64,000 nt of DNA from Candidatus Woesearchaeota archaeon (GCA_016203305.1 JACQMY010000036.1:1886-65885), one strand, 5' to 3'. Counted from the first letter of the stretch, positions 13,195-63,485 are shown. Program-made: numbers and translations. The notes: a model not told the origin generated them from the sequence alone.

Positions 13195-13398
13195 TTACAA
13201 TCCTTGTTTGAACGTCCTTAAGTATTTCATTTGTACTTCGATGAATTTCTTTCCAAAATCATCTCCTTTCTTAACGTGATTCATGAGTTCTTCTTTTCCT
13301 AAAGTGCCAAGATTTCCCAAGTTGATTTGAATGTACTCAGGCATGGTCTCCAAACGTGCAAGGATGAGTTTTTTGATGTCAGCTTCGTATTCGGTCAT
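13195..13398 (-). CDS. small hypothetical protein (67 aa)
   Basis: ORF track; overlaps the neighbouring ORFs by 4 nt, giving a three-gene operon. Confidence 0.4.
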   Translation of the reverse strand: MTEYEADIKKLILARLETMPEYIQINLGNLGTLGKEELMNHVKKGDDFGKKFIEVQMKYLRTFKQGL

Positions 13399-13586
13399 AT
13401 GAGCTCCATTTTTTCGAGTTTTTTTAATATGTCTTTGCCGAGAGGAGTGTCATTATGGATTTCGATGTATGCGCTGTCCCAAGTATACGGCTTGTCAATG
13501 TCGCCCACTTTGACAACTACAATAACTTCATTTCGTACATTTTCTGGAAGTTTGGCATAAACCTTTATAAAGCGGTCTTTTGACAT
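13395..13586 (-). CDS. small hypothetical protein (63 aa), first gene of the three-gene operon
   Basis: ORF track; TTTATAAA box about 25 nt upstream on its own strand. Confidence 0.4.
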   Translation of the reverse strand: MSKDRFIKVYAKLPENVRNEVIVVVKVGDIDKPYTWDSAYIEIHNDTPLGKDILKKLEKMELI

Positions 13587-43443: not shown

Positions 43444-43582
43444 GGTGTTTACCTTTTTCTTCAATTCTCTGGTAGTTAGATTATCTTGGATTAAGTATTG
43501 GTTGGGTATGTAGGTAGTTAATTTTTGCGCTCATTGTCCAGACCGATACATTTATATATCAGATGGCATATTTATATCTCAT

Positions 43583-44107
43583 ATGATACAAAAATATTCC
43601 AGATATAGAGTTTTGCAACAGTTTTTTGATTTTCCACGCAAAGCATTCTTGATTCGTGAGCTTTCGAGAAATACGAAGCTTTCAGTGCCTTCGGTTCGTC
43701 TCCACATTAAGGCTTTGCGCGCTGAAGGGCTTATCATAAAGGACAACACTGGCCTGTACCCTTCATTTAGAGCAGTGAGGGAAGACTCTTTGTTCAAACT
43801 TCTGAAAGCTCAGAACATGGTTTTAAGGCTCCATCAAACAGGCATTCTGAGCACCATCGAGAAAACTACGTACCCGTCTTGCATTGTGCTATTCGGTAGT
43901 GCTTCCCGAGGCGAAGACGCTGAGGAAAGTGATATTGATTTGTTCATGCAGGCAAAGCGAGTGAACCTTGATTTGAGAAAGTTCGAAAAGGCTTTGAACC
44001 GAAAGGTCAATCTTTTATTCGAACCCGATATGAAAACAATCAGTCCAGAGTTGCTCAATAATCTTGCAAACGGAACGGTAGTGTATGGGTATTTGAAGGT
44101 GATTTGA
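43583..44107 (+). CDS. minimal nucleotidyltransferase (MNT) with an N-terminal wHTH
   Basis: 'LFGSASRGEDAEESDIDLF' GS...DxD motif. Confidence 0.7.
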   Translation: MIQKYSRYRVLQQFFDFPRKAFLIRELSRNTKLSVPSVRLHIKALRAEGLIIKDNTGLYPSFRAVREDSLFKLLKAQNMVLRLHQTGILSTIEKTTYPSCIVLFGSASRGEDAEESDIDLFMQAKRVNLDLRKFEKALNRKVNLLFEPDMKTISPELLNNLANGTVVYGYLKVI

Positions 44108-47134: not shown

Positions 47135-48055
47135 TCACCCCTTTCTAAACCGGTTCAGCAACGCATACCTCCGATACTTCTGAACACCAGACTTCCAAGC
47201 AGCAAGCTCTGCCTTAACTTTCCGTCCACGCTCACGCAACTGCTCCATACGCTGCCGATATGAAAACCTGCCCATCTTACCAGCAAAATACTCCTCCTGA
47301 ACATGTTGCAAAGTCTTATTCGTTGCATCAATCACCCTTGAAGCCTCACGCTCCTTCTGCAAAGCAAACATCACGCGAAACTCAAGCCAGCCCCAAACTC
47401 CCAAAATAGCCAGGATTGCCAGAACCACAATCACACCGATCGTATGCCTCTTGACAAACTCTGTTATGTTCTTCTTTGCAATATAAGCAAACGTGCGTTC
47501 ACGAACGGCAGCAGACTCTGCCTCTGCCAAATGCATCCTAGTGGCATGCACCAAGACAAAAACTTCATCGTACCGTTCTGACTCAAAAGCATCACGCGCC
47601 TTTTCAAACGTCCGGTCAACCAAAGACATATTTACCGAAACATTCACCTGAACCAACAACGCACCCAAATCCTCCAACGCATCACGAGCGTCAAAAGCAG
47701 AAACCTTTTTCTCAGCAATCCATCGCCCAAGCTCAACCACTCTGGTTAAATTCTGACCGGGCCTCAACCCAGCACTCCGCGCTTGTGCAATCATCCTGAA
47801 ATACTCCTCAGCAAGAGGCTTTCCCTCCACTGATTCGTTCAAGTGGACAGCAGTCTGCAACAACGCGAACTCATCACGGCCAACCAAAGAGTCGTTCATT
47901 CTCAATAACGTATCTTCCAAAGAAGCATATGGAAGACCTGCCTTTTTAACCTGAGCAACATCAACAGTAGCGTTCAAAAACACCTCTTTTGCCTGCTCAA
48001 CAGAAACTGCACAAGCCAAAGAAGACAAAACAATTAACAAAAGCAACCACTTCAT
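47135..48055 (-). CDS. signal-peptide protein with a C-terminal TM helix and basic coiled coil; paralog of the giant protein's C-terminal anchor
   Basis: Signal 'MKWLLLLIVLSSLACA'. TM 'IGVIVVLAILAILGVWGWL' followed by a 'QEEYF'-type coiled coil, mirroring the C-terminus of the 4872-aa protein ('WWALALLAALALYGAL...EAQEAYF'). 4-nt overlap with it. Confidence 0.6.
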   Translation of the reverse strand: MKWLLLLIVLSSLACAVSVEQAKEVFLNATVDVAQVKKAGLPYASLEDTLLRMNDSLVGRDEFALLQTAVHLNESVEGKPLAEEYFRMIAQARSAGLRPGQNLTRVVELGRWIAEKKVSAFDARDALEDLGALLVQVNVSVNMSLVDRTFEKARDAFESERYDEVFVLVHATRMHLAEAESAAVRERTFAYIAKKNITEFVKRHTIGVIVVLAILAILGVWGWLEFRVMFALQKEREASRVIDATNKTLQHVQEEYFAGKMGRFSYRQRMEQLRERGRKVKAELAAWKSGVQKYRRYALLNRFRKG

Positions 48056-51000
48056 TTTCCCACCTCTTTCCTCAACTCTGCAATATGCGCGTCCAGCTCA
48101 GTTACCAAACTCTTGAACACCTGCATTCGAAGCTCATATCTCCTCCTGGAAATAACGTGATGAGCAAAATATGCCAATTGAGCCTCGCGCAAGCCACGCA
48201 TTGCCTCCTGGCGTTCTGCGATGGCCACCTTCAAAGCCTGATCCTTTCGGTACAAACGAGAACGCAACAAGCGCAGCCCAACCATGTCGCCAGTAATTCT
48301 TTCCAAACGCAACTGCAACTGGCCACTTGCACGCTCGAACTCCCTGCCACCAAGCTCGCGCCTGACAAAATAAGCCTCCTGAGCCTCACGCAACAACCGC
48401 TGCGCCTCAACACGCTCGCGCAACAACGCATCCAACCTGTACTTTATGAACGCAAGACGCGCAAGAAGCACTGCTTTAAGAGCGCCATACAAGGCAAGCG
48501 CTGCCAGCAACGCCAAAGCCCACCAGTACCTGCGCGCAACACTCTGCCACGTCCAAGCACGCTCTACAACTCTCAACTGCACGGCGAGCGCTTCATCTGC
48601 CAACGAGATCGCACGATCAAAGTCCTCACGCTCGAATGCCTTAACAGCAAGAGAAAGCAACTTCTCAACAGCAAGAACGTCAAGCCCTTCGTCCTCTGCC
48701 TTGTTTATCTCTGTCCTTACCTTATCCAACAAAGCGCCTGCTTCCAACTCGCGCTCCAACAACAAACGCAACTTCTCAACAACATACGCAGACTCCTTGT
48801 AATCACGTTGAACAAGAGCGTTCCTTAACATTCCGCGCAACACATCAGCCCGAGTAACAGGATAATCCTTTGCCACAACTATTGCATACAAGCTCTCCAC
48901 ATCAGTATAAGCACGCTCAACCTCATCCGATGTAACTTCTCGAATAATCAAACGGACCCGTTTGTACTCAACAACAGTCTTCCTAATCTTGGTTGAAAAC
49001 GGCAAACCATTCCTGAACTCAACACCCTCTGCTTCCAACAGAGAAGTCATTATGAAGGTTATGTTTACTTCTGATTGCTGCTCATAAGCAGGAGCGGCAA
49101 GCTCGATATCGAAAATCCTACTCTGCCCATACGGAATGTTCTCCAATGCTTGCGGGGACCAGTGAATGTATCTTGAGAGGTAGCCGTCAACAGTTAAATC
49201 AACACGTTTCATCAAGGAATTATTGTAAACGTTCGTAACAATCAACGGAAATACTATTCTTGTACCACGCTTAACCTCGATAGTCTCATTTGTCACTAAG
49301 GCAGCTCGCTCAAAAAATGTCTTCTGGAACGTGCCGGGATCTATCCCTCCACCGCCACCGCCCGCACCTCCTGCGCCACCAGCACCACCACCGCTGCCTG
49401 AGCCGCCACCTCCTACAACAAATCCAGGACCGGCAACAACCAATACTTGAGCCGTTGTACCAAGCGTCAAGTTCTGAGAAGAAAGCAGGACGCCAGAATC
49501 ATTAAACCCGTCAGCTGCAGTGCTAACATCCCTGAACCCAAGAACTGCGCCTGATGGAATCTGCACAATAATCGGCAACTCCTCACTAGCATTCGGTTCG
49601 ATCGTTCCAAAGAACGTTGACAAACCACCACCAGTTAGCACCCAATCAACAGGCAAGGTTATATTCAAAGTCACATTAGACGCATTCTTCGTGCCTCTGT
49701 TAGTTACCCTTGCAATAATCGAAATTCCTGACTGGCCACGCTGCACTTGAGACGGAATTACTGAAAAGTCGGCAAACAAGAATGCATCATCCACAGTTGT
49801 AATTGTGAAACTTGTGTTCAACTGCGCAGGAGACGCGTTCAGCGAGCTGCCAACAGTGGTCGCGTTGATAGTGATATTATTAGAGAATACACCAACAGTC
49901 CCAGGAGCAGTCGCGTTAACACCCACCATTCTGACCCCGCCAGGAGAAAGAGTAAAGTTAGTCTCGCTGAAGAAGGTGGCATTAAGAGTAGAGTTCAACA
50001 CAAACGATAAGTTCACATCCCCTGTATTATTAATAGTTATATTGCCCATCGAGATATTGACCCCCATCGGACTTGAGAACACACCCAAATTGGCAGGAGA
50101 ACGCGTCCACGTAGCCTCGAATGAAACATTAAACACTACAATTCCAGACGTGCCATTATTTCCTGCGGTGTCATTCCCAGTCATAAACACGATATAACTC
50201 CCCTCGACTGCAAGGAACGAAGCATTAAACTCACCAGTCAAGACATTGAACGACATCGACACATTTGCAAAAGAAGAACCGTTCACCACTATATGCAACA
50301 CCACAGAGTTCAAGTCAACAGCGGTGAAATTATCAGTAATGTTCGCAGTGAAATTAATCAACACTCCTGGATCCAGCGCGTCAACCGTACTCGGAGAGAA
50401 TAACAAACTCAAGAAGTCAGGAGGAGTACGGTCAACAGCAAATACCCTCGTTTCAGACGTGCTTGTATCAGCCGAAGTATCAGTACATGCAACCGCCCAA
50501 GTATAGTTGCCCTCTGACAGGCCTGAGACAGTAAAGTTTACCACTGAGTTATTCAGAACCGAAGAATTTGTCTGATTAACTGAACCATTCAACAACAATG
50601 AACAATTCAAAGTTGCAGACTCCGCGTCAGTCACGTTGGCAAAAAACAACACTGTCAAGTTTGTCGTGTTCGTCCCATTAGCAGGAGCAATGGAAACAAC
50701 AACAGGGGAGAGACCTGAAATAACCGTTGTCGACTCCGTAGCATTCACCTGCACAAACTCGCCTGACACGCTTACCGCTGACACGTTCACAGAGTTATTC
50801 AAAACAGTGCCGTTTGCAATACCATTGCTAACGTTCACCAAAATAGACAAGTTCACAGACGCGCCAGGAGAAAGATTGCCTAGCGAGAACGTACTATTGC
50901 CCGAAGCAGGGGCAGGAGAAGAACTCACAAACAACACGCCAGACGGATAGGTTTCATTCACCGTCACGTTATATGCAATCTCGCCGTCCAGATTCTGCAC

Positions 51001-54000
51001 TGTGATCGTGTAATTCAATTGCGACCCTTGCAAAACAGGATCAACAGAGTCAGATTTTGAAACAGCCAACGCAACAATACCTGCGATTGTTGTCGTCGTA
51101 CTATTCGTTACCGTAAAGTTCTGCCCTGTTGCGTTGGCAAACGAAACGTTATACGAATTATTCAACAATGAACCGTTGAAGGCAGCAAAGCTCACGTTAA
51201 CAGTAATGTTAATCGTTGTTGAACCTCCAGGCAAAATATTGCCAACGCTAAACGTGCCATTTCCTGAGCTTGGAAGAGGCTGACTGCCATTGAACGTCAC
51301 ATTAACAGGATAACCCTCAACAACAGTAACGTTGTACGCAATGTCATCACCAACATTGTTCACCATAATCTGGTACCGCAATGTTGAATTCACCGGAACA
51401 GGATCAGGACTATCAGACTTTGAAGTAAACACAACAGCGAATCCTGTAACAGTTGTGACCTCTGTATCGCTCGACGACCTATTACCGCCAGACGTGTTCT
51501 GGAATGAAACATTCACAAAATTTGAAAGCAACGTTCCATTTGCCAAGCCATTGCTCACATTAACAGTAATGTTCACAGTTGTAGACGCATTCGGAGACAA
51601 GTTACCTAGAGAAAACGTATTGTTTCCAACAGTTGGAACAGGACTACTGTTGTGGAACACAACACCAGACGGATAAGTTTCTGTCAAAGTAACATTAAAC
51701 GCAACATCATCACCAGTATTGTTAACCAAAATACTATAATTCACCTGCTGGCCTTTTATGACCGGATCGGGTGAATCAACTTTTACAACCGAGATCGTTG
51801 CAGCACCCAAAACAGTAGTCGTTGTGCTATTGCGCACAGTCGTGTTCACCCCAGAAACGTTTGCAAACGTAACGTTATAACTATTATTCAAAACCGAACC
51901 ATTCGCTGCAGCAGCGCTTACGTTCAGGGTAATATTCACTGTAGCGCTCTGACCAGGAGACAAGTTACCAAGCGAGAACGTATTGTTCCCAACGCTTGGA
52001 GCAGGACTGCTGTTGTGGAACGTAACATTCTCAGGATAATTCTCAACAACAGTCACATTATATGCTATCTCATCACCAAGGTTGCTTACCACAATGGAAT
52101 ACTGCAACTGCTCGCCTCTTGCGACCGGATCAGGAGCATCAGACTTGCTCGTAAATACAACAGGGAAACCAACAACAGTAGTCTGTTCAGTATCACTCGC
52201 GCTCTGATTTAGCCCAAACGTATTCTGGAAAGAGGCATTTGCAGTATTGTTCAACAACGTTCCATTTGCCAAGCCATTGCTCACATTAACAGTAATGTTG
52301 ACCGTTGTTGAAGCATTCGGAGACAAGTTACCTAGCGAAAACGTATTGTTTCCAACAGTTGGAACAGGACTACTGTTGTGGAACACAACACCCGACGGGT
52401 ATGAATCCAAAAACGTCAAGTTGAACGCAGTATCATCACCAGTATTGTTGATTAAGATACTATAATTCAACTGCTGACCCTTAACAACAGGATCAGGACT
52501 ATCGGTCTTAATCGTAACAACAACCGGCGCGCCCAGCACACTCGTAAGAGTGCTATTCGTAACCGTAGCGTTCTGACCAGAAGCATTCGCAAAAGTCACA
52601 TTATAACTATTGTTCAACACCGTACCATTCACCAATCCAAGGCTCACGTTCACAGTAATATTCACCGTTGTTGACATGTTTGGCGAAAGATTGCCTACTG
52701 AGAACGTGCCGTTTCCTGAGCTTGCAACAGGACTACTACTATGGAACAAGACACCAGAAGGATAACTCTCAACAACAGTCACGTTGAACGCAGTGGAGTT
52801 GCCAGTGTTGTTGATTAAGATGCTATAGTTCAACTGCTGACCTTTCACAACAGGATCAGGACTATCGGTCTTTGAAGTCGAGATAGAAGGCGTAACAAAT
52901 AGTGCAGTGAAGTTCGTAACCTCAGAGCTATTGACTCTGCCACTAGTATCATTCGCTATAATTGTCACATTGTACAAACCAGTGAGCGGGATGAAGAAAG
53001 ATGCATTATACTTACTTGTGCCAGGAACAATCACCAACACAACCTGCTGTATTGTTCCATTAGGCAAGGTCACGTTGGCAAGCACGGTATCAATAACGCC
53101 ATCATCAGTCACGTTGGCAGCAAGCTCAATTGTCTCACCAATGTTAAACGTGCTATTCACAACAGGCCTCAAGTCAAACACCAATGGAGTCACCAAGTCA
53201 CAAGTCCCATCCCACGAACTGCCATCAGTGAAGAAGCCTTTAAACACGCCCTGGCCAGAACTATTCGTGTATGCAACCACAAACCTGCCAGGACAGATAG
53301 AGTTATTTGTAACTGAAACACGACCTGCAACATCCAACAATCTGAACGTACTATTAGGCTGAGACTCGACTGTTATCTCGTTGCTTATGTTGGAACCACT
53401 CGCATTAAAAGTAGCTGCCTTGATCGCACCAGCATTCTCATCCCACCACGCGACAACAGCCACATCCTCAGAGCTTGTCTCATTCATCTTCACAGTACCC
53501 GCCGAAATTCGCGAAATGACTCCTGCATTCCCATCGATAGATGCCGGAGCGAACAGCACCACGTTATCGCTCGTCCTGCCAGCAATGTAAACGTTCTGAT
53601 CAACAGAATCGTAGAATGCCATGAAGAAAGAATTGTTCACTAATGAGCTATTCCCAAGCGAGGTCATCGCAACCTGCCCAGTTTCGCCGACATCAGCATC
53701 TATGTCAACCTGGCCTGTCAACAATGCCCCCGTCTCACTTTGAATGCTGAAAGTAGCATCGTTTGACAAGTCATCAAACCAGAAGTACGCCCACCGTGTA
53801 CTATTCGCACCAGCGCATCCAACCAAATTCTCATTAGGAGCAGCAGGAGCCATGTTGCCATCAACCGCTAACTCCCCAACAGACTGAGTTCCATTATTGA
53901 AGAACGTCAAGAATGACGCGTCTGCGTTCCCATCATTCGCATAACACGTCACAGACTGGTTAACGATAGAGGCAAGCTTCACATCAGTATTCAAACCAAT

Positions 54001-57000
54001 CCCTGCACGCACAACAGTCGGAGAAGTTGTGTTCGTTCCATTTATCAGGAACAGCCCCTGGGTCAAGTCATCAGATGGCCCATCAACCCACGAAATCAAA
54101 AAGTGCGTGCTATTGACCAAAGCAACATCAACCCGCGAAACATTATCCGCAGAAGTATCAACATCAGTCGTGTTCACAATCACGGTTCCATTCGTGTTCA
54201 TAATTCTAAATGAGACATCAGATTCATTGTTGTCAACAAACGCTATCACAAATGCGGTATTGTTAACAGGCGCAATAGCGACATCAACAGCAGAGCTTGT
54301 TTCAAGGAAGCCAGGGTCGTTCGGCGTGATAGTTATTGTATAATTCTGTCCAGGAGAGATGTTCATTATTTCAGACCAGTTACCCAAACACTCCTGACCT
54401 GAGAAGTTATAATTCTTACACGTGTACAAAAGATAGTCTCCAATCGCAGTAACCACTACGCTTGCATTGGTGAAATTAATCCCAGTCGGATCGATAGCGT
54501 ACTCGACAAAGGAGCCATTCGGCGTCTGGCTCTCTGAGAACGGATCATCAATGCGCAAAATACTCAAAATGCTGCTTGAATTGTGCAACAGCATGCTGAT
54601 AGATTTCACACGCGACCCGCTAATATTCGCAGAAAGGTTCAACATGCCAGAAACATTACTCGTCACGGACAAAGTGTAGTTAACAAATCCACCCGTACGG
54701 TTGACTATGTCGATCACATTCAAGCTCTGCCTTATGAACGTCAGCGTGAAAGAGTTGTTCACATTATTCAAAGTATCATTCGCAAATATTCTGATCGTAT
54801 AATTACCACGCTGCGTCAAGTTTGAGAATGACAAATTATACAAAGAGCCAGTAACGTTTGTCGAAAAGTTCTGCAAAGTGCCATCTGGATAGGTAATCTG
54901 CACCATAACCGTGCCAACACCCAGCCAATCAGTCACGTTCGCCGTGATGTTAATAGTATCGTTCAACAAGAACGAACCGCCAGCAACAGGACTCAACACT
55001 GAAACATTCGGAGGATTAACCTTAACGACAACTTGCCGCGTCTCAGTATTGTTGATATTGCCAGCCAAGTCAAACACTGTTGCATTAAAGAAGTACAAAC
55101 CGTCCGCAAGACCTGTGAAGTTCACAAAGTTAGGAGAACTGGAAGTATTACTGCTGTTAATCTCTCCGCCAGTCGAGTTGAACAAGCGAATTGTGGTGTT
55201 CGCAAAGTTCACGTCTGTTCCGGTCAAATTAACCAGGATATTCCGCCTCGCAATTGTGGAACCATTCGCATCAGTCGGAGAAACAAATTCAGCAGCCGGC
55301 CTCAAAGTATCAATCGTAATCGTCCTGTTCCCAGTCTGATTCGAATTACTACCTATATCGCTCACACTGCCAAAGTACTGGTACACGCCATCCGCAAGAC
55401 CTGTGAAGTTATTGAAGAACGACATGTTCAAAGGAGTGTAAGTAATATTTGACTGGTCAATAGTTGCAGTAACTGCAATCACCGGAGCATACTCGATGGT
55501 ATTCGATCCTATAAGCAAGAAGTTTGAAGCATTCTCAAACGTCTTCGGAGAAACATCAGAAGTTCCAATTGTCCCAACATTGTTCCCGTTAACAAGCACG
55601 TTCAAAGTACCGGAAATTACGGAAAAAGTGGCTGTCAAATTAGCCCTTGAAGCATTATCGGCAATAGTAATGACATGGCTCTGTGAGGTAAGACTTGCGA
55701 CAAAAGTTATGTCAGTGCCATTCGCTTCTGACCTGAGAGGAGTTGTAAAGTTCACACGAGAGCCATTAAGCTCGATAAGCGCAACACTCATGTTCGCTTC
55801 GTCAACAGAAATGTTCACGGGCACAAACGTATTGCCTGTAAACGTGTTGTCAGCAGGAGTTGGACCTACAAATCTAATCTGTGGAACAATGGTATCTAGC
55901 CCTACATTGAATGACGTCACCACTGTATTATTGATGTTGCCTTCAGTATCGTTCGCCCTGAAAGTAATATTATACTGCCCGTTCAAGTTCGGCGTTATGA
56001 AAGACCCATTATATTTATCCGTACCTGGAACTCTGGTCAAGTTAACCAAGAACGTCGTACCATTAGGGAAAGTAATGTTCGCAGTCACGTTATCAACAGC
56101 AATATTATCTGTAACGTTTGCAGAGATCTCGATCACGATGCCTGGAGCGAATGCCGTTCCTTCAAACGGACGCACATCAAACACCAAAGGCTGAATAGTG
56201 TCTGCAATAACTGTTGTGTTCTGAGAAGCATTCTGAGTAAAGTTAACACCAGACAGGTTGGCAAAAGTCACGTTAACAGTGTTATTGATGACCGTGCCAT
56301 TCGCCAGACCACGGCCAATATTCAATGTGATGTTAATTGTCGTGAAAGTTCCATTCGTCAGGTTTCCAAGCAAGAACGTATTGTTGCCCGAGCTTGGAAC
56401 AGGTTGGGAGCCATTGAATACTACGCTCACAGGATAATCCTCAAAAACAGTAATGTTATACGCGATCTCATCACCAGTATTGTTCACAACAATCTGATAC
56501 CGCAACGTAGCACCACGCACAACAGGATCAGGACTATCAGACTTATTTACAGAAACTTGAGCAAAGCCAAGAACTGTTGTTAGCTCTGAATCAGACACTG
56601 TGACATTCTGACCAGAAGCATTAGCAAAAGTAGCAGAAACACTATTGTTCAAAACAGAGCCGTTTGTCAAGCCATTACTCACATTAACAGTAATGTTAAT
56701 CGTGGTTGACTGGCCAGGCAACAAAGTGCTAAAGCCAAACGTGTTATTGCCGCTACTTGGAGCAGGCGTACTTGAATGAAACACAACACCAGATGGATAG
56801 CTCTCAACAACAGTCACATTATAAGCGATCTCACCACCCGTATTATTCACAAATATCGAATAGTTCAACTGCTGACCCTTTATGACGGGGTCAGGATTAT
56901 CATTCTTAATCGTGATAACAATAGGAGTACCCTGCACATTCGTAGTAGTACTGTTAGTCACGGTCGTGTTAACACCTGAAACGTTTGCGAACGTCGCATT

Positions 57001-60000
57001 AAACGAATTATTCAAAACAGAACCATTAGCCAAAGCACCACTAACATTAACAGTAATGTTAACAGTCGCACTCTGACCAGCAGACAAGTTGCCCAATGAG
57101 AACGTGTTGTTGCCAGAAGATGGTGAAGGTTGGCTTCCATTAAATACGACGTTTGAAGGATAACTATCAACAACAGTCACGTTATACGCAAATTCATCAC
57201 CCAAGTTTATCACAGTAATCTGATACGACAAAACAGAACCATTCAACACAGGATCAGGACTATCACTCTTAGAAGCGAACACAACAGGGAAACCAAGCAC
57301 AGTAGTAAGCTCAGAATCAACAACAGAACTATTCTGACCAGAACTATTCGCAAACGTAGCATTAACAACATTAGTCAAAACAGTACCATTTGCCAAACCA
57401 TTGCTAACGTTCACAGTGATGTTAATCGTCGTGGAAGAACCATTTGAGATATTGCCAAGCAAGAACGTGCCATTTCCTGAGCTTGCAACAGGACTGCTAT
57501 TATGGAACACCACGCCAGCAGGATAAGTTTCTACTACAGTAACGTTAAACGCAGTATCGTCACCAGTATTGTTGATTAAGATACTATAATTCAACTGCTG
57601 ACCTTTAACAACAGGATCAGGACTATCGCTCTTAATGTTCACAATAACAGGACTACCCAAAACAGCAGTTGTAGTACTATTGGTCACGGTCGTGTTAACA
57701 CCAGACAAGTTCGCAAAAGTAGCATTAAACGAGTTATTCAACACAGTACTATTTGTAAGAGCAGAACTCACATTAACAGTAATGTTCACGGTTGTTGATT
57801 GACCAGGAGACAAGTTGCCAAGACTAAACGTGTTATTGCCACTTGTTGGAACAGGTTGGGAGCCATTGAATACTACGCTCACAGGATAACCATCAACAAC
57901 ACTCACATTATATGCAAACTCATCACCCAAGTTCACCACAGTAATCTGATACCGCAAAGTTGTGCCCTTAGGCACAGGATCAGGACTATCACTCTTAGAA
58001 GCGAACACAACAGGGAAACCAAGCACAGTAGTAAGCTCAGAATCAGAAGCAGAACCATTCTGACCAGAACTATTCGCAAATGTAGCATTAACCGTGTTCG
58101 TCAAAACAGTACCATTAGACAGACCATTACTCACGTTCACAGTAATATTAACAGTTGTAGATGCGTTCGGAGACAAATTACCCAAACTAAACGTGCCGTT
58201 TCCTGAAATTGGAACAGGGCCACTACTATGGAAAACAACACCAGCAGGATAAGTTTCCACCAAGGTAACGTTAAACGCAGTATCGTCACCAGTATTGTTG
58301 ATTAAGATACTATAATTCAACTGCTGACCCTTAACAACAGGATCAGGACTATCGCTCTTCACAGACACCACCACAGGAGAACCAAGCACAGTAGTCAAAG
58401 TACTATTAGAAACTGTTGAGTTCTGACCGGCCAGACTTGCAAAAGTAACATTATAACTATTGTTCAACACGCTATTGTTAGTCAACCCAGCACTCACGTT
58501 CACAGTAATATTAACGGTTGTAGAAACGCCAGGCAACAAATTGCCAAGACTAAACGTGCCATTGCCTGAAGAAGGCGAAGGTTGTGAGCCATTAAATATA
58601 ACGTTTGCAGGATAGCCGTCAACAACAGTCACATTATACGCAATCTCTGTTCCAACGTTATTCACAACAATCTGGTACCGCAAAGTTGTACCCTTAGGCA
58701 CAGGATCAGGACTATCAGACTTGCTCGTGAACACCAAAGCAGCACCCTGCACAGTCGTAATAGTACTATTAGGCACGGTCGTGTTAACACCTGAAATGTT
58801 GGCAAAAGTCGCATTAAACGAATTATTCAAAACAGAACCATTCGCCAAAGCGGCACTCACGTTCACTGTGATATTGATCGTTGTAGATTGGCCAGGCAAC
58901 AAATTGCCAAGACTAAACGTGCCATTGCCAGAAGCAGGCGAAGGTTGTGAGCCATTAAATATAACGTTTGCAGGATAGCCGTCAACAACAGTCACATTAT
59001 ACGCAATCTCATCACCAGTGTTGAATACTGTGATCTGATAACGCAACGTCGACCCATTCAACACAGGATCAGGAGTATCCGCCTTGTCCGCAAACACAAC
59101 AGGGAAACCAAGCACAGTAGTCAAGATGCTTGTGTTAACAGACTGGTTGCCAGTCGAGTTCGAATAGTTCACAACAGCAGTATTGTTCAACAACGAGCCG
59201 TTTGACGCGCTCACGTTCACAGTAATGTTAACAAGGAAAGATCGACCAGCAGAAAGATTACCAATCGTGAACGTGTTATTACCCGAACTTGGAGCAGGCT
59301 GTGAACCGTTAAATACAACGTTTGTCGGATAAGTTTCGCGCACAGTAACATTCTCCGCAACTATCGTACCAGCATTTGACACGTTAATCTGATACCGCAG
59401 CGTTTGGCCTCTCACAACAGGATCAGGACTGTCAGACTTGGCAACAGTCACATTAGTAAACAACGCACCACTAATTGTAAAGGACCCTGAAACAGAGCTT
59501 GACGCACCAGACGAGTCAAGCGCGAACACTGTAAAGTTATACTGACCATTCTGAGTCGTATTAGTGAAGTTCAACTCGTACAACCCACTTGTTGTTGTGC
59601 CGCTCACTAAAGTCAAGTTGAACGACACAATACTACCGTTCGGCAAAGTCACGCTCACGTTAACCCTGCTGATGTTAATGTTATCCGTCGCGTTCACGGT
59701 AAAGTTCACAGTTCCATTTGTCGTGAAAATCGAACCATTTGCTGGAGAAACAACCAGGATGCTCGGAGCGGGATCAAAGCTGCCCCAGGCAAACATTGCA
59801 CACTGAGTCTGACCGTTCAAGCAATCGAGAGCTGTTTCAATAGTGGAAACATTCGTCCAGTTTGAACCATTCCACCTCGCGCTCGCCAAATTCTCTACAA
59901 AGCTAAAACCAAGCATCATAATCTCATTCGTAACAGGATGCGGGTAGAACTCAAGCGTTTCCACGCTATTCCCGCCACCAATCAACGAGCCAGTGAGCGG

Positions 60001-62670
60001 ACAGTTTATCATGCTCGAATGCGACCATGACGAGCTATTGTAACTGCATACCCGGGCATCATTATCAGCACCAGGCAAACCAGGTATATACCCGAATAAT
60101 CCATTGTTACTCTGGCTTTCGAACGCACAATCCAAACTCACCGCGCCCGCACCATTTGCCTCAATCGCAGCATCCTCGGCAGGAGGAACAGGAGAAGTCT
60201 CAACAGCACTGCCATTCCACATCCTGAAGTTGCCATCACCCGTAGTATCCTGGCTCACGAAACCAATACGATCAGATTTTTTATCGCCACAAAGACGCAT
60301 CCCATTCGGAGCACCGCTGTCCAAAGTGAAGAACACCTGATCAGCACTCCAAGACTTTGCAGAATAGTTAAACGTCCTGAACGCATAAGTCGTTGTAGAG
60401 TTTGCGTACACTACCAAGCCATCCTTGCTTGAACCCTCCCAAATAAAGTCAAACAATTGCTCGGCAATATCGTTAACGCTACCAGTAATGTTCATCTGAG
60501 TAGCATTATCAAACCCTGTACCGTTCCACATCACAGCAAAAATGTCAAGGTTCGCATCCTCCAATAAAACCATGACATCATCACTACCATTGCGGCCCAC
60601 AGTCTTAACCCAATGAACAGCAGCAGTAACATTCGTATTCAAAGCAAACTCAGAACTCCAACCAGTGCCATTATACAACCTATACTTAACCTGTCCATTC
60701 GCAACAATTGAATCTTCATAAACAATTAAGGCGTCTCCTGATATTTGCTCGAAATCAAGATCAAACCCTCTGCGCCCAGTATTCGGGTTGTCAAACGCCA
60801 ACGCCTGAAAGTCAGACCAGTTAGACTCGTACACCTGAACAGACGTGTTTGTATTAATGTCAAGAGTCCCCATCACAAACTTGTCAAACCTAGGTCCCGG
60901 ACGCAAAACCAGCCATTCAATATCCGCACCAACCGAGTTCGCATCAGTTTGTTCCTGCATAAATGACTGGTTTGACAAATTCCAGAACCGGTAACGCGGA
61001 GCAGGAACTGAAGCTTCAGCATAAGCAGCCAAGCCATCAGAACCAGCAGCAGTAACTGCAGCATCATGAATGAAGTCAAACTCAATAAATCCAGACAGTG
61101 CGTTCTCTGCAAACGTATTAGCATTACAATCAGGCTCTGTTGCATCACAATTATCATTCGTAATATTGCGCACAAGCTTGACCACTTTGAGGTCGAAAAC
61201 ATCTGTGCCAAATGGAACACCACCTAGTTTCACATATTGAACTTCAGCAATACCAGCAATACCAGAACGGCCAACTATCACAGAAGTATTCGCCACGTAA
61301 ATTTCAACATAGCTAACTGTTCCATTATCCCTTGCCAAAAAGTCGATCACGCTGCCATTCGTCAAGTTACGCTCGAAAGTTACTCTAACTTTATGGCCTG
61401 CTGGAATCGGCTCAGACCACACACCATCAATAGCGTTCACCTGTGAGAAGACATCGCTCACGAACGAACCGTTCTTGTCAAGATGAATGGCAGCAGTAGC
61501 ATTAATCTCGCCAAAGCCAGGGTCTTCCGGAGTAAGCTCAAACGAATACTCTCTACCCGGAATCAACCCAGACTTGAAAACAGACCAGCTACCAGCGCAA
61601 GATCTTGAATCAAAGTCCCACTGCTTACACTTCAACAAAGCAGTACCCTGAGCAACAACAGTAACAGTGGCTGTTGAGAAGTTCACCCCAACAGGATCAA
61701 TCGCGTACATCTGCACGAACCTGCCGGACTCAGGAGTATCATCAACACGCAAAACCTCACTTCCAGAAAGGTTAACATCCTCGAACTCAATCGAACTTAC
61801 AGGACCTGAATCCAAGTCAACCAAGACGTCAACACTTCTTGGAACCTCAACAGCAGAGCTTGTTCCCACACCCATTGCCTTCTGCGCCAATAACCTGCCA
61901 GTGCCACGCTCAAGGAATTTCACACTGCCCGAAACACCCCTGCCAGAAGCATCACGCACAACAAACACTGCAGAGACATTGGCTAATGCATTGACCTGTG
62001 CAGACCCATTCAAAACCAATTCTACAGACTCATTAACCAGGATCGAGTCGTTAATCGCCACCAGCTCTCCGCGCAATGAATTGTTCACAGTATTGTTAAC
62101 AGGCGGCTCAACTGGTACAACAGGCGAAGCGTTCTGCAACTGGTCAACCATTGCATCCAATGCATCCTCAACATACGGGGCAACAGCAGGAACATCCACA
62201 GTTTCGACAACCTCGACAGTAGGCGGTAGGTTGTAGATAGTAGGTAGTAGGTAGTAGGTGGTTGGCGGAACTGAATAGTTTGTAGTGGGCAGCGTGTAGT
62301 TTGTGGTTTGTGGCACGTCATCTGGTTGTTCAGACTCATTGACCGCATCAAGCGGTTCAACAGAATAGTTTGTAACAGGCACTGCATCAGAATCGTTCAA
62401 TAGCCCGACAGGCTGTTCAACTATGCCTGTGTTTTCTGTCGTGAATTCCACAACTAACTCTGACAAATTGTCTGGAGTTTGCACGACTTCCAAGACACGG
62501 CCAGGCACGTCAGGAACTGAAGCGTTCGACAAAGCAGAACCTAGCACGCTCAGTGCGTCGTCTACAAGAGGAGCAGAAGCTGGAACGTCAACAGTCTCTA
62601 TCACAGTCACGTTCTCTGCAGCAGCAGAAAGAACAAGTGCAAGTACCAACAAGAGAGTGAAGCGTTTCAT
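48052..62670 (-). CDS. giant (4872 aa) secreted surface protein with about 30 DUF11-type repeat domains, Gly-rich linker and C-terminal TM/coiled-coil anchor
   Basis: Signal peptide 'MKRFTLLLVLALVLSAAA'. Recurring '(K/S)SDSPDPV..G..L.Y.I.V.N.G' DUF11/TIGR01451-type repeats, N-glycosylation-sequon rich. 'GGGGSGSGGGAGGAGGAGGGGGG' linker. Uninterrupted 14.6-kb ORF. Confidence 0.85.
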   Translation of the reverse strand: MKRFTLLLVLALVLSAAAENVTVIETVDVPASAPLVDDALSVLGSALSNASVPDVPGRVLEVVQTPDNLSELVVEFTTENTGIVEQPVGLLNDSDAVPVTNYSVEPLDAVNESEQPDDVPQTTNYTLPTTNYSVPPTTYYLLPTIYNLPPTVEVVETVDVPAVAPYVEDALDAMVDQLQNASPVVPVEPPVNNTVNNSLRGELVAINDSILVNESVELVLNGSAQVNALANVSAVFVVRDASGRGVSGSVKFLERGTGRLLAQKAMGVGTSSAVEVPRSVDVLVDLDSGPVSSIEFEDVNLSGSEVLRVDDTPESGRFVQMYAIDPVGVNFSTATVTVVAQGTALLKCKQWDFDSRSCAGSWSVFKSGLIPGREYSFELTPEDPGFGEINATAAIHLDKNGSFVSDVFSQVNAIDGVWSEPIPAGHKVRVTFERNLTNGSVIDFLARDNGTVSYVEIYVANTSVIVGRSGIAGIAEVQYVKLGGVPFGTDVFDLKVVKLVRNITNDNCDATEPDCNANTFAENALSGFIEFDFIHDAAVTAAGSDGLAAYAEASVPAPRYRFWNLSNQSFMQEQTDANSVGADIEWLVLRPGPRFDKFVMGTLDINTNTSVQVYESNWSDFQALAFDNPNTGRRGFDLDFEQISGDALIVYEDSIVANGQVKYRLYNGTGWSSEFALNTNVTAAVHWVKTVGRNGSDDVMVLLEDANLDIFAVMWNGTGFDNATQMNITGSVNDIAEQLFDFIWEGSSKDGLVVYANSTTTYAFRTFNYSAKSWSADQVFFTLDSGAPNGMRLCGDKKSDRIGFVSQDTTGDGNFRMWNGSAVETSPVPPAEDAAIEANGAGAVSLDCAFESQSNNGLFGYIPGLPGADNDARVCSYNSSSWSHSSMINCPLTGSLIGGGNSVETLEFYPHPVTNEIMMLGFSFVENLASARWNGSNWTNVSTIETALDCLNGQTQCAMFAWGSFDPAPSILVVSPANGSIFTTNGTVNFTVNATDNINISRVNVSVTLPNGSIVSFNLTLVSGTTTSGLYELNFTNTTQNGQYNFTVFALDSSGASSSVSGSFTISGALFTNVTVAKSDSPDPVVRGQTLRYQINVSNAGTIVAENVTVRETYPTNVVFNGSQPAPSSGNNTFTIGNLSAGRSFLVNITVNVSASNGSLLNNTAVVNYSNSTGNQSVNTSILTTVLGFPVVFADKADTPDPVLNGSTLRYQITVFNTGDEIAYNVTVVDGYPANVIFNGSQPSPASGNGTFSLGNLLPGQSTTINITVNVSAALANGSVLNNSFNATFANISGVNTTVPNSTITTVQGAALVFTSKSDSPDPVPKGTTLRYQIVVNNVGTEIAYNVTVVDGYPANVIFNGSQPSPSSGNGTFSLGNLLPGVSTTVNITVNVSAGLTNNSVLNNSYNVTFASLAGQNSTVSNSTLTTVLGSPVVVSVKSDSPDPVVKGQQLNYSILINNTGDDTAFNVTLVETYPAGVVFHSSGPVPISGNGTFSLGNLSPNASTTVNITVNVSNGLSNGTVLTNTVNATFANSSGQNGSASDSELTTVLGFPVVFASKSDSPDPVPKGTTLRYQITVVNLGDEFAYNVSVVDGYPVSVVFNGSQPVPTSGNNTFSLGNLSPGQSTTVNITVNVSSALTNSTVLNNSFNATFANLSGVNTTVTNSTTTAVLGSPVIVNIKSDSPDPVVKGQQLNYSILINNTGDDTAFNVTVVETYPAGVVFHNSSPVASSGNGTFLLGNISNGSSTTINITVNVSNGLANGTVLTNVVNATFANSSGQNSSVVDSELTTVLGFPVVFASKSDSPDPVLNGSVLSYQITVINLGDEFAYNVTVVDSYPSNVVFNGSQPSPSSGNNTFSLGNLSAGQSATVNITVNVSGALANGSVLNNSFNATFANVSGVNTTVTNSTTTNVQGTPIVITIKNDNPDPVIKGQQLNYSIFVNNTGGEIAYNVTVVESYPSGVVFHSSTPAPSSGNNTFGFSTLLPGQSTTINITVNVSNGLTNGSVLNNSVSATFANASGQNVTVSDSELTTVLGFAQVSVNKSDSPDPVVRGATLRYQIVVNNTGDEIAYNITVFEDYPVSVVFNGSQPVPSSGNNTFLLGNLTNGTFTTINITLNIGRGLANGTVINNTVNVTFANLSGVNFTQNASQNTTVIADTIQPLVFDVRPFEGTAFAPGIVIEISANVTDNIAVDNVTANITFPNGTTFLVNLTRVPGTDKYNGSFITPNLNGQYNITFRANDTEGNINNTVVTSFNVGLDTIVPQIRFVGPTPADNTFTGNTFVPVNISVDEANMSVALIELNGSRVNFTTPLRSEANGTDITFVASLTSQSHVITIADNASRANLTATFSVISGTLNVLVNGNNVGTIGTSDVSPKTFENASNFLLIGSNTIEYAPVIAVTATIDQSNITYTPLNMSFFNNFTGLADGVYQYFGSVSDIGSNSNQTGNRTITIDTLRPAAEFVSPTDANGSTIARRNILVNLTGTDVNFANTTIRLFNSTGGEINSSNTSSSPNFVNFTGLADGLYFFNATVFDLAGNINNTETRQVVVKVNPPNVSVLSPVAGGSFLLNDTINITANVTDWLGVGTVMVQITYPDGTLQNFSTNVTGSLYNLSFSNLTQRGNYTIRIFANDTLNNVNNSFTLTFIRQSLNVIDIVNRTGGFVNYTLSVTSNVSGMLNLSANISGSRVKSISMLLHNSSSILSILRIDDPFSESQTPNGSFVEYAIDPTGINFTNASVVVTAIGDYLLYTCKNYNFSGQECLGNWSEIMNISPGQNYTITITPNDPGFLETSSAVDVAIAPVNNTAFVIAFVDNNESDVSFRIMNTNGTVIVNTTDVDTSADNVSRVDVALVNSTHFLISWVDGPSDDLTQGLFLINGTNTTSPTVVRAGIGLNTDVKLASIVNQSVTCYANDGNADASFLTFFNNGTQSVGELAVDGNMAPAAPNENLVGCAGANSTRWAYFWFDDLSNDATFSIQSETGALLTGQVDIDADVGETGQVAMTSLGNSSLVNNSFFMAFYDSVDQNVYIAGRTSDNVVLFAPASIDGNAGVISRISAGTVKMNETSSEDVAVVAWWDENAGAIKAATFNASGSNISNEITVESQPNSTFRLLDVAGRVSVTNNSICPGRFVVAYTNSSGQGVFKGFFTDGSSWDGTCDLVTPLVFDLRPVVNSTFNIGETIELAANVTDDGVIDTVLANVTLPNGTIQQVVLVIVPGTSKYNASFFIPLTGLYNVTIIANDTSGRVNSSEVTNFTALFVTPSISTSKTDSPDPVVKGQQLNYSILINNTGNSTAFNVTVVESYPSGVLFHSSSPVASSGNGTFSVGNLSPNMSTTVNITVNVSLGLVNGTVLNNSYNVTFANASGQNATVTNSTLTSVLGAPVVVTIKTDSPDPVVKGQQLNYSILINNTGDDTAFNLTFLDSYPSGVVFHNSSPVPTVGNNTFSLGNLSPNASTTVNITVNVSNGLANGTLLNNTANASFQNTFGLNQSASDTEQTTVVGFPVVFTSKSDAPDPVARGEQLQYSIVVSNLGDEIAYNVTVVENYPENVTFHNSSPAPSVGNNTFSLGNLSPGQSATVNITLNVSAAAANGSVLNNSYNVTFANVSGVNTTVRNSTTTTVLGAATISVVKVDSPDPVIKGQQVNYSILVNNTGDDVAFNVTLTETYPSGVVFHNSSPVPTVGNNTFSLGNLSPNASTTVNITVNVSNGLANGTLLSNFVNVSFQNTSGGNRSSSDTEVTTVTGFAVVFTSKSDSPDPVPVNSTLRYQIMVNNVGDDIAYNVTVVEGYPVNVTFNGSQPLPSSGNGTFSVGNILPGGSTTINITVNVSFAAFNGSLLNNSYNVSFANATGQNFTVTNSTTTTIAGIVALAVSKSDSVDPVLQGSQLNYTITVQNLDGEIAYNVTVNETYPSGVLFVSSSPAPASGNSTFSLGNLSPGASVNLSILVNVSNGIANGTVLNNSVNVSAVSVSGEFVQVNATESTTVISGLSPVVVSIAPANGTNTTNLTVLFFANVTDAESATLNCSLLLNGSVNQTNSSVLNNSVVNFTVSGLSEGNYTWAVACTDTSADTSTSETRVFAVDRTPPDFLSLLFSPSTVDALDPGVLINFTANITDNFTAVDLNSVVLHIVVNGSSFANVSMSFNVLTGEFNASFLAVEGSYIVFMTGNDTAGNNGTSGIVVFNVSFEATWTRSPANLGVFSSPMGVNISMGNITINNTGDVNLSFVLNSTLNATFFSETNFTLSPGGVRMVGVNATAPGTVGVFSNNITINATTVGSSLNASPAQLNTSFTITTVDDAFLFADFSVIPSQVQRGQSGISIIARVTNRGTKNASNVTLNITLPVDWVLTGGGLSTFFGTIEPNASEELPIIVQIPSGAVLGFRDVSTAADGFNDSGVLLSSQNLTLGTTAQVLVVAGPGFVVGGGGSGSGGGAGGAGGAGGGGGGIDPGTFQKTFFERAALVTNETIEVKRGTRIVFPLIVTNVYNNSLMKRVDLTVDGYLSRYIHWSPQALENIPYGQSRIFDIELAAPAYEQQSEVNITFIMTSLLEAEGVEFRNGLPFSTKIRKTVVEYKRVRLIIREVTSDEVERAYTDVESLYAIVVAKDYPVTRADVLRGMLRNALVQRDYKESAYVVEKLRLLLERELEAGALLDKVRTEINKAEDEGLDVLAVEKLLSLAVKAFEREDFDRAISLADEALAVQLRVVERAWTWQSVARRYWWALALLAALALYGALKAVLLARLAFIKYRLDALLRERVEAQRLLREAQEAYFVRRELGGREFERASGQLQLRLERITGDMVGLRLLRSRLYRKDQALKVAIAERQEAMRGLREAQLAYFAHHVISRRRYELRMQVFKSLVTELDAHIAELRKEVGK

Positions 62671-62831
62671 TTTTTCTTCACCCTCTTCAGCGTCAACTTG
62701 CCACTCTCAAAACCAAAATCGATCTCATCCTTATCGTTCCACTCGAGAATTTTCACTAAAGTCTTAGGAATCGTTAGAATATACTGATCTTTAGGAGTCC
62801 TCTGTAATTTGCGTGTGATTCCCTTCGTCAC
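62667..62831 (-). CDS. small AbrB/SpoVT-family (swapped-hairpin) DNA-binding protein, GTG start, stop overlapping the giant-gene start
   Basis: Hand-translated: (V/M)TKGITRKLQRTPKDQYILTIPKTLVKILEWNDKDEIDFGFESGKLTLKRVKKK. 'ILTIPKTLVKIL' resembles the AbrB/MazE 'vtIPkei' motif. ATGA overlap with the giant ORF. Confidence 0.4.
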   Translation of the reverse strand: MTKGITRKLQRTPKDQYILTIPKTLVKILEWNDKDEIDFGFESGKLTLKRVKKK

Positions 62832-62956
62832 TTATTACTTCCTCTTTTCCTTTGAAATTCATATGAAAATGGAGCGCCTATTTAAAAGCTTTGTGGTGTG
62901 GTAAAAGGTATACTGGTACAATTGAGGAGTACATTCTTGACATATGATAAGTAGTA

Positions 62957-63001
62957 TGATGAATAATATGATGAATAATATGAAGATTCATATGAATCTA
63001 A
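62957..63001 (+). promoter_or_regulatory. tandem 12-mer plus palindrome upstream of the AbrB-like/giant-protein operon (candidate operator)
   Basis: TATGATGAATAA x2 (62957-62980) followed by the palindrome AGATTCATATGAATCT (62986-63001). TTTTAAATA box about 55 nt upstream of the GTG on the minus strand. Confidence 0.4.
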
Positions 63002-63099: not shown

Positions 63100-63203
63100 G
63101 CCGCGGTAGTATAGTCCGGTCAAGTATTCGGCCCTTTCGAGGCAGCCAGCAAGTGCTGGTCCAAAGCTAGGCTGAGACACGGGTTCAAATCCCGTCCGCG
63201 GCA
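63100..63203 (+). tRNA. tRNA-Glu (anticodon UUC) with an intron of about 29 nt
   Basis: Manual fold: acceptor GCCGCGG/CCGCGGC, anticodon stem CGGCC/GGCTG, loop CTTTCG|intron with ccagca-ag-tgctgg hairpin|A, T-arm ACGGG-TTCAAAT-CCCGT. T-run follows. Confidence 0.65.
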
Positions 63204-63353
63204 CTTTTTTTAGTGCGTAGCACTTGCTGGTTAAGTTAAAAGGGGATTTGAACAAGCCTCCTCGCGATGCTATGCTCGCATCGGAGGTTCTCCAAATGCT
63301 TGCCTACGCTCGCATTTGCAGAAACTTTCCGTCCGCTACGCTCCCGGAAAGTA

Positions 63354-63372
63354 ATCCCGTCCGCGGCACTTT
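63354..63372 (+). repeat. second copy of the tRNA-Glu 3' end (19-bp exact repeat)
   Basis: ATCCCGTCCGCGGCACTTT is identical to 63189-63207 and 63467-63485. Followed by a T-run. Confidence 0.75.
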
Positions 63373-63466: not shown

Positions 63467-63485
63467 ATCCCGTCCGCGGCACTTT
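63467..63485 (+). repeat. third copy of the tRNA-Glu 3' end (19-bp exact repeat)
   Basis: ATCCCGTCCGCGGCACTTT followed by a T-run. Confidence 0.75.

Follow-up and report, generated by a model that had tools for sequence, protein, structure and literature searches.

A stand-alone AbrB/MazE-fold protein encoded ahead of a giant surface-protein gene in a woesearchaeal archaeon, and candidate operator sites in its promoter

A small gene standing directly ahead of the gene for a giant surface protein was analysed in a 64,000-nucleotide stretch of DNA (the window) from a Candidatus Woesearchaeota archaeon (GCA_016203305.1, JACQMY010000036.1:1886-65885). Its 54-amino-acid product is probably the switch for the very costly giant gene, because conserved palindromes lie in the promoter of the small gene. 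The explanation that is modestly favoured here is a dedicated autoregulator which binds sites in its own promoter and exerts negative feedback on a three-gene surface-protein operon. The small gene and its ribosome-binding sequence are placed as follows.

62667..62831, minus strand: gene of the 54-amino-acid (aa) protein of AbrB/MazE/SpoVT fold, first gene of the operon, identified by its GTG start, TGA stop, PF04014 match, homologues and substitution pattern
62841..62847, minus strand: Shine-Dalgarno sequence AAAGAGG, 9 nt 5' of the GTG of the small gene; its A/G-rich GAGG block is kept in relatives

The original prediction, made from the DNA alone, had claimed a GTG-started open reading frame (ORF) of 54 aa, and this frame was found exactly at the above position, translating as MTKGITRKLQRTPKDQYILTIPKTLVKILEWNDKDEIDFGFESGKLTLKRVKKK. 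A search among 5.8 billion proteins returned 32 homologues of the window protein with 65-92% identity, nearly all of them 52-58 aa long and labelled Candidatus Woesearchaeota by their sources. The family alignment contains 13 invariant columns, including R7, Q10, T12, K14, Q16, the TIPKTL run and W31, and K23 of the window protein is likewise invariant. Comparison of codons between the window and eight relatives gave a proportion of synonymous differences (pS) of 0.59-0.83 and of nonsynonymous differences (pN) of 0.05-0.12, with a pN/pS ratio of 0.08-0.18. The homologues, this ratio and the Shine-Dalgarno sequence 9 nt upstream establish the small ORF as a real gene under strong purifying selection. 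In 16 of the 19 distinct loci the gene starts with GTG or TTG. The protein is strongly basic, having a pI of 10.0 with lysine and arginine making up 14 of its 54 residues.

The AbrB/MazE-like core that had been read from the sequence was borne out by the profile searches and by the predicted structure. The Pfam family PF04014 (MazE_antitoxin, SpoVT/AbrB domain) matched the window protein with an E-value of 4.5e-5 and 23.7 bits, and was matched at E < 0.01 by all 33 of the 33 aligned family members, the best value being 9.4e-9. A profile search of the PDB sequences returned only MazE, AbrB, Abh and AbrB-family chains. The AlphaFold2 (AF2) model built on the family alignment, with a predicted local distance difference test score (pLDDT) of 73.5, showed a beta-beta-alpha-beta-beta topology consisting of strands 4-8 and 10-11/17-18, helix 23-29, and strands 36-42 and 45-51. 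The best Foldseek neighbour of this model in the PDB was MazE (probability 0.95-0.98, template modelling (TM) score 0.53-0.62), and the further leading neighbours were C56 of pSSVi (36% identity), AbrB-N, C68 of pSSVx, Sso7c4 and SpoVT, the TM score ranging over 0.43-0.62 for the leading matches. The AbrB/MazE fold dominates the head of the Foldseek list, with unrelated folds such as I-DmoI ranking directly beneath. By sequence and predicted fold, the small ORF encodes a stand-alone AbrB/MazE/SpoVT swapped-hairpin domain, and a fold unrelated to swapped-hairpin barrels, which the original prediction had named as the outcome against it, was not obtained. DNA binding by the protein is predicted from its pI of 10.0, the invariant residues R7, Q10, T12, K14, Q16 and K23, and the palindromes kept in its own promoter.

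The wider family includes fused forms. A HMMER scan of 1.84 billion representatives gave 157 relatives at E <= 1e-3, many of which are tandem duplications within one chain and one of which has four copies. The family comprises single-domain proteins, tandem 2x forms (99-131 aa) and one single-chain 4x form (226 aa); the fused forms are found at loci L023 (6706-7065) and L027 (10001-10396) and among proteins P0033-P0039 and P0183-P0190. The metagenome-assembled genome (MAG) carrying the 2x form of L023 is labelled Aenigmatarchaeota. The motif RxLQxTxKxQY...T.PK is invariant and is kept in both halves of the fused forms, which fits symmetric recognition of a palindrome. The model of the 2x form (pLDDT 81.7, predicted TM score 0.71) is one compact unit, and its best full-length neighbours in the PDB are MraZ structures, with a TM score of about 0.5 and a probability of 0.96-1.0. 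Natural 2x and 4x fusions are what one would expect if the functional unit is a barrel formed by two chains.

The small gene is the first of a conserved three-gene operon made up of the regulator, a giant glycosylated surface protein and a membrane protein of about 300 aa. The remaining parts of the operon in the window are as follows.

62667..62670, minus strand: ATGA stop/start overlap between the small gene and the giant gene
48052..62670, minus strand: gene of the 4872-aa secreted, membrane-anchored surface protein
47135..48055, minus strand: third gene, encoding a 306-aa membrane protein with a signal peptide, a transmembrane (TM) segment at 200-229 and a basic coiled-coil tail

The overlap is exactly as had been claimed, the TGA stop of the small gene (62669-62667) having bases in common with the ATG of the giant gene (62670-62668). 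The giant protein has a signal peptide, at least 15 DUF11 repeats, and DUF7619, DUF7507, Big_7 and NPCBM_assoc domains. It carries 365 N-X-S/T sequons for N-glycosylation and ends in a single TM helix followed by a coiled-coil tail on the cytoplasmic side. At its N-terminus as well as its C-terminus it is orthologous to the big gene products of L001, L005, L014 and L023. The start of the third gene overlaps the stop of the giant gene by 4 nt, and at the same position L005 has an orthologue that is 38% identical and L023 a counterpart of 350 aa. The 306-aa protein and the C-terminus of the giant protein are alike in topology (signal peptide, TM helix and coiled coil), and a paralogy comparison of the two found no significant sequence similarity.

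Conservation of the small ORF ahead of orthologous and related big genes, on which the original prediction was to stand or fall, was seen at about 20 loci. In these loci, from Woesearchaeota-type MAGs, the small gene nearly always overlaps the start of a large secreted-protein gene (L001, L005, L006, L007, L010, L011, L014-L019, L022, L023 and L027), and a large gene with an N-terminal signal peptide lies directly 3' of the small gene in all loci with enough sequence. The size of the big gene product is >3611 aa in L001, 2841 aa in L005, 2396 aa in L007, 2119 aa in L011, >2277 aa in L014, 2422 aa in L019, 2351 aa in L023 and >1015 aa in L027, while L006 and L010 encode a Laminin_G_3 protein of 736-737 aa. 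Only L020 departs from this, as the small gene there is not followed by a big gene. The overlap is the 4-nt ATGA in every single-domain locus read with one exception, and the 8-nt ATGAGTAA in the two fused-form loci; the fused 2x forms also sit ahead of a large gene, which there has a perfect GGAGGTGA Shine-Dalgarno sequence. This synteny holds down to 62% identity. The upstream neighbours vary among the loci (tRNA-Glu, an Fe-S gene, an acylphosphatase, PLDc_N or an integrated element), so the promoter elements described below belong to the operon of the small gene.

The region upstream of the small gene carries two candidate operators and a predicted archaeal promoter, given here from the distal to the proximal end.

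62984..62999, no strand: 16-bp perfect palindrome AGATTCATATGAATCT, distal operator candidate, its core kept distally in relatives
62937..62996, minus strand: distal array of five 12-nt units, each opening with (T/A)TCATA and together including two TATGATGAATAA 12-mers
62889..62916, minus strand: conserved block CCAGTATACCTTTTACCACACCACAAAG, 5' of the TATA box and resembling a TFB recognition element (BRE) at its 3' end, present in 7 of 8 close relatives
62879..62887, minus strand: predicted archaeal TATA box TTTTAAATA, with T.TAAA invariant in the promoter alignment
62858..62867, no strand: proximal operator candidate, palindrome TTCATATGAA, 11 nt 3' of the TATA box, covering about -10 to -1 relative to the predicted transcription start

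The two tandem 12-mers that had first drawn attention to this region are real: TATGATGAATAA occurs twice, at 62955-62966 and 62967-62978 on the plus strand, and this duplication is the sole exact 12-nt tandem in the window, against 0.01 expected. The 16-bp palindrome claimed beside them is also present, although by itself it is not significant; AGATTCATATGAATCT is the sole perfect 16-bp palindrome in the window, where about 1.2 are expected by chance. What raises it above chance is that its 10-bp core TTCATATGAA recurs at 62858-62867 and that both positions are kept in relatives. The core has two copies in the 64-kb window against 0.13 expected, and no copy of TTCATATGAA was found in the window beyond these two promoter copies. 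The repeats do lie upstream of the gene as stated, yet at 124-168 nt from the GTG rather than at about 100 bp. The two 12-mers proved to be units of the five-unit array with a 12-nt period, and the proximal palindrome had been overlooked. In minus-strand order the units read TTCATATGAATC, TTCATATTATTC, ATCATATTATTC, ATCATACTACTT and ATCATATGTCAA, the first of them being the palindrome core.

The same layout is seen in the relatives, where the distal site is followed by 3-6 units of 12-nt period. The distances between the distal and proximal palindromes are 105, 105, 105, 105, 117, 129 (window), 141 and 88 nt, which follow 105 + 12n with the exception of L005. In eight promoters of the window subgroup all 10 of the 10 columns of the proximal palindrome are invariant and the TATA core is kept, whereas the spacers have diverged; the palindrome lies at -32 to -52 in 8 loci. 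In 16 of 19 distinct loci the octamer TCATATGA occurs no more than 200 nt upstream of the small gene, and its density is about 300 times higher there, with 24 matches in 3.8 kb of upstream sequence as compared to 5 in the other 256 kb. L023 and L027, the distant loci with fused forms, share the order of palindrome with repeats, TATA box and palindrome. Phylogenetic footprinting of this kind supports the proposal that the region holds operator sites. Two further occurrences of TCATATGA in the window, at 13395-13402 and 43579-43586, were considered as members of a regulon and rejected as incidental, both coinciding with start or stop codons of ORFs. At the former, two small ORFs of 63 and 67 aa (13195-13586, minus strand) overlap by ATGA inside the octamer and are probably an unrelated small two-gene cassette.

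An archaeal TATA box is centred about 26 nt before the transcription start. From this general spacing and the position of the TATA box, the start is predicted near 62857, at the downstream edge of the proximal palindrome. The conserved block at 62916-62889, written CCAGTATAC...CACCACAAAG, is about 28 nt long in the form CCAGTATAC(g/c)cTT.TCC.CACCACAAAG, which is far longer than a BRE requires; the palindrome GTATAC lies within it, and a second factor may bind there.

A mechanism that would bring these elements together is as follows, in which we infer the binding of the sites by this protein, the sign of the regulation and the oligomeric state with its stoichiometry. The 54-aa protein would most likely act as a dimer, or as higher oligomers of dimers, and the dimer would recognise the two-fold symmetric TTCATATGAA sites of its own promoter; sites of 10 bp with this symmetry suit such a dimer. 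Since the motif hardly occurs outside this promoter, a dedicated factor is to be expected, and the parsimonious candidate is the DNA-binding protein whose gene lies there. Occupation of the proximal site, between the TATA box and the start, would block the recruitment of RNA polymerase, and this block would place an extremely expensive operon under negative feedback. A position between the TATA box and the transcription start is the usual one for archaeal repressors, and repression through the proximal site is favoured because the site falls there. The distal palindrome and the 12-nt phased WTCATA units may nucleate cooperative binding in the manner of MraZ boxes, with the number of 12-nt units setting the distance between the distal and the proximal site.

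The arrangement at the junction of the two genes was also analysed, as the original prediction had taken the small gene to be translationally coupled to the giant one. Two features are located here.

62678..62682, minus strand: GGTGA Shine-Dalgarno sequence of the giant gene, lying in the final codons of the small gene, 7 nt 5' of the ATG
62651..62687, minus strand: predicted RNA hairpin with a 12-bp stem, pairing the Shine-Dalgarno sequence of the giant gene with codons 3-7; tentative

The overlap behind that proposal is conserved in nearly all loci, and the coupling itself is only suggested by it. GGTGA stands 4-7 nt before the start of the big gene in all loci, though the C-terminal residues encoded there vary (RVKKK, KGEK, RGEK). 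The loop of the hairpin holds the AUG and the stop codon, the 66-nt segment has a z-score of -3.3, and in 12 of 17 loci the Shine-Dalgarno sequence is predicted to be paired with P >= 0.7. The hairpin was not recovered when RNAalifold was run on 12 junction sequences, and its covariation was not significant. When pairs were counted, 77% of the cells were paired as compared to 49-57% in slid controls, but 96 of 500 shuffles were as high, which is not significant, and the structure used in the counting was drawn from one of the counted sequences. Hence the hairpin is held as tentative only. The overlap and the predicted hairpin together make translational coupling possible, and independent initiation on the big gene is at least as likely, since that gene has its own conserved GGTGA Shine-Dalgarno sequence. 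Strict dependence is disfavoured because the regulator starts with a weak GTG or TTG while the giant gene has an ATG and a good Shine-Dalgarno sequence. A programmed -1 frameshift joining the small ORF to the giant gene, suggested by the -1 frame of the giant gene and a run of six A in the window, was rejected: most relatives read AAGAAGAAATGA, which is devoid of a slippery run.

Several observations weigh against the autoregulator reading. The PF04014 score of the window protein lies 1 bit under the gathering score of 24.7 bits, and every Foldseek E-value is weak (>= 0.05), the latter because the domain is tiny, with a query of 54 residues. The transcription start that places the proximal site is predicted from the TATA position only. 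The proximal site is not universal, as L007, L009, L016 and L019 keep the distal palindrome with the proximal one replaced by a half-site upstream of the TATA box, and L010 has half-sites only. In L011 and L020 the small gene abuts the preceding gene and has no promoter region. The TTCATATGAA sites could also serve another factor, their binding by this protein being the inferred step. Finally, the distant relative P0085 (791 aa) is an in-frame fusion to a TM helix and an extracellular part of about 700 aa, which hints at a tie to the membrane protein itself and not to DNA. P0085 may be a Rosetta-stone clue that the small protein and the membrane protein are physically linked, or it may be a membrane-tethered regulator. 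The idea that it arose by mis-calling, a small ORF having been joined to a neighbour of 737 aa such as L006 has, was rejected, as its extracellular part has no similarity to the L006 protein and no ATGA occurs at the join; P0085 is taken to be a distant relative that was fused in frame independently.

In one alternative the palindromes serve some other factor and the small protein has a non-transcriptional role tied to the big protein, being for example a cytoplasmic partner of the N-terminus or signal sequence of the big protein, or a general nucleoid protein like Sso7c4. The P0085 fusion would fit such a role, as would the unusually strict conservation of the stop/start overlap and the presence of the 'histone-like protein' Sso7c4 (5itj, 5itm) among the structural neighbours. 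This alternative is nevertheless considered improbable. The protein is a DNA-binding domain alone, of pI 10 and of a kind with no known non-DNA role; a symmetric dimer would suit the two-fold sites, and each half of the fused forms retains the same conserved polar and basic residues. In 256 kb of related sequence the motif hardly occurs outside this promoter, which calls for a dedicated factor with the adjoining gene as the obvious candidate, and a start codon that is mostly GTG or TTG argues for low abundance, unlike a stoichiometric partner or a chromatin protein. The same protein and sites could instead act with the opposite sign: the protein would be mainly an activator which, from the distal palindrome and array upstream of BRE and TATA, recruits TATA-binding protein (TBP) and transcription factor B (TFB), and the proximal site would act only as a brake when the protein is abundant. 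Activation is frequent among archaeal factors that bind upstream of BRE and TATA, and the distal palindrome is indeed the more widely kept one, being present in L006, L007, L016, L019, L022 and L025, which lack the proximal palindrome. Activation is given a low probability all the same, as the proximal palindrome, which falls between TATA box and start in a classic position of archaeal repressors, is invariant in the window subgroup. In addition, the known stand-alone regulators with an AbrB/MazE domain are mostly repressors (PMC4333400; for AbrB, PMC3025583).

Far less probable is an orphan or degenerate type II antitoxin (of MazE, PrlF or VapB kind) that neighbours the giant gene by chance. 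This reading would be suggested by database names, as JGI calls P0018, P0020 and P0028 antitoxin components and the best Pfam and NCBIfam matches are antitoxin models. The NCBIfam antitoxin models, however, score 13-16 bits against cut-offs of 56-125, a PADLOC scan gave no match, and matches to PHROGs were uninformative. No cognate toxin gene was found next to the small gene; the 4872-aa surface protein lies downstream and tRNA-Glu upstream, and the related loci likewise lack an adjacent toxin. The protein stops right after the DNA-binding domain without a toxin-neutralising tail: the PF04014 match covers residues 16-53 of 54, and most homologues finish within 0-3 residues of a common end point, while nine have additional C-terminal residues. 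The synteny with the big gene, kept down to 62% identity, also speaks against a chance neighbour, and the 'antitoxin' names on some homologues are not supported. Least credible of all is that the small ORF is a mere translated leader (upstream ORF) which opens the ribosome-binding site of the giant gene, its peptide being irrelevant. The ATGA overlap and the predicted hairpin, which pairs the Shine-Dalgarno sequence of the giant gene with codons 3-7 and holds the AUG in its loop, would suit a leader, but purifying selection is strong along the whole peptide, its homology to PF04014 is clear and the covariation of the hairpin is not significant. Such a mechanism may coexist with autoregulation and cannot replace it.

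The proposed autoregulator may be compared with known systems of the same fold. MazE acts on a palindromic operator as a dimer and so represses its own promoter (PMC4333400), and the N-domain of Escherichia coli MazE (PDB 2mrn, 2mru, 1ub4, 1mvf) is the best match to the window protein in both sequence and structure. MazE has the swapped-hairpin fold, is a dimeric self-repressor acting at a palindrome and is encoded by the first gene of its own operon. The disordered C-terminal tail of MazE neutralises the MazF toxin encoded just downstream, whereas the window protein has no tail and no toxin, is followed by a 4872-aa surface protein and belongs to an archaeal host. MraZ, which is encoded first in its operon, binds to 3-4 phased boxes of GTG(G/T) with a 6-nt spacer, the transcription start being inside box 1 (PMC12957436). 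MraZ (PDB 9qlg, 9sz7, 1n0e) belongs to the AbrB-related cradle-loop barrel superfamily and heads a long cell-envelope operon, the bacterial dcw; it is also the best full-length structural neighbour of the fused 2x relatives. The predicted sites of the window and its relatives have an analogous layout of WTCATA plus 6 nt in 3-6 units, with a site at the predicted start. They differ in having a 12-nt instead of a 10-nt period and palindromic cores instead of purely direct repeats. The window protein is a single half-barrel and not a tandem, it is archaeal and its operon is a different one, and the Pfam family of MraZ gave no match to it at E <= 10. It is not MraZ, and the resemblance is functional and architectural only.

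The N-domains of Bacillus subtilis AbrB, Abh and SpoVT (1z0r, 1yfb, 2fy9, 2w1t) have the same fold in a domain of about 50 aa (PMC3025583), and use basic residues of the N-terminal strand and loop. AbrB differs in that it regulates globally, with low sequence specificity, and has a C-terminal domain for tetramerisation, while the window protein consists of the domain only and is apparently devoted to a single promoter. Among archaea, C56 (pSSVi, 7xi6), C68 (pSSVx, 3o27) and Sso7c4 (5itj) of the Sulfolobales are stand-alone AbrB-fold proteins of about 55-68 aa, C56 being 36% identical to the window protein over the Foldseek alignment. These are proteins of virus-plasmid hybrids or abundant chromatin-like proteins and have no link to a surface-protein operon. 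In its mode of action the window protein probably resembles the DNA-binding half of MazE, and in its arrangement it resembles MraZ.

The literature search found no paper linking an AbrB-like gene to giant surface-protein operons of archaea. The family is a new, well-delimited subfamily of regulators of a known kind, here in a new context, and is not categorically new. Few genes of DPANN-type archaea are as conspicuous or as little understood as those of the giant surface proteins, which are presumed to mediate attachment to other cells. A small dedicated regulator with its precisely defined pair of candidate operators offers a tractable experimental handle on them, consisting of a 54-aa protein and about 180 bp of DNA, for uncultured organisms included. 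The analysis further corrects the automatic 'antitoxin' labels on the family, and adds a proposed archaeal case to the MraZ/MazE-type arrangement in which the first gene of an operon encodes an AbrB-fold autoregulator. A wider reading, that all this forms an undescribed lineage-wide DPANN module combining the 1x/2x/4x AbrB-fold protein, MraZ-like assembly, a rheostat of unit number and hairpin-tied translation, is regarded as rather doubtful. In such a module, the protein on the palindrome and the variable 12-nt boxes would gate giant proteins thought to mediate cell-cell contact. Gain and loss of 12-nt units would provide an evolvable, possibly phase-variable rheostat, and the hairpin sequestering the Shine-Dalgarno sequence would tie translation of the giant gene to that of the regulator.

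Some minor observations concern the surroundings of the operon. In L011 (1-3350) and L020 (70-1253) the small gene overlaps the stop of the preceding gene by 1 nt, and the order in L011 is a big gene ending in a TM segment, the small gene and a big gene. In the window, a tRNA-Glu(TTC) with a canonical intron of 29 nt lies at 63100-63204 on the plus strand, divergent to the operon; it was found by Rfam and by intron-aware ARAGORN, and default ARAGORN missed it. The last approximately 19 nt of this tRNA, ATCCCGTCCGCGGCACTTT at 63189-63207, have copies at 63354-63372 and 63467-63485, and an inverted partial copy of the tRNA intron and T-arm lies at 63219-63253. These copies look like scars left by repeated integrations into the 3' end of the tRNA. 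The operon adjoins tRNA-Glu in several relatives, in either orientation; the loci concerned are L005 (1300-7583), the upstream regions of L007-L009, L016 and L019, and L003 and L004. L005 has a tyrosine integrase and about 6 kb of small hypothetical genes directly upstream, including another MazE-like gene of 88 aa. The giant-gene locus thus seems to border an integration hot spot.

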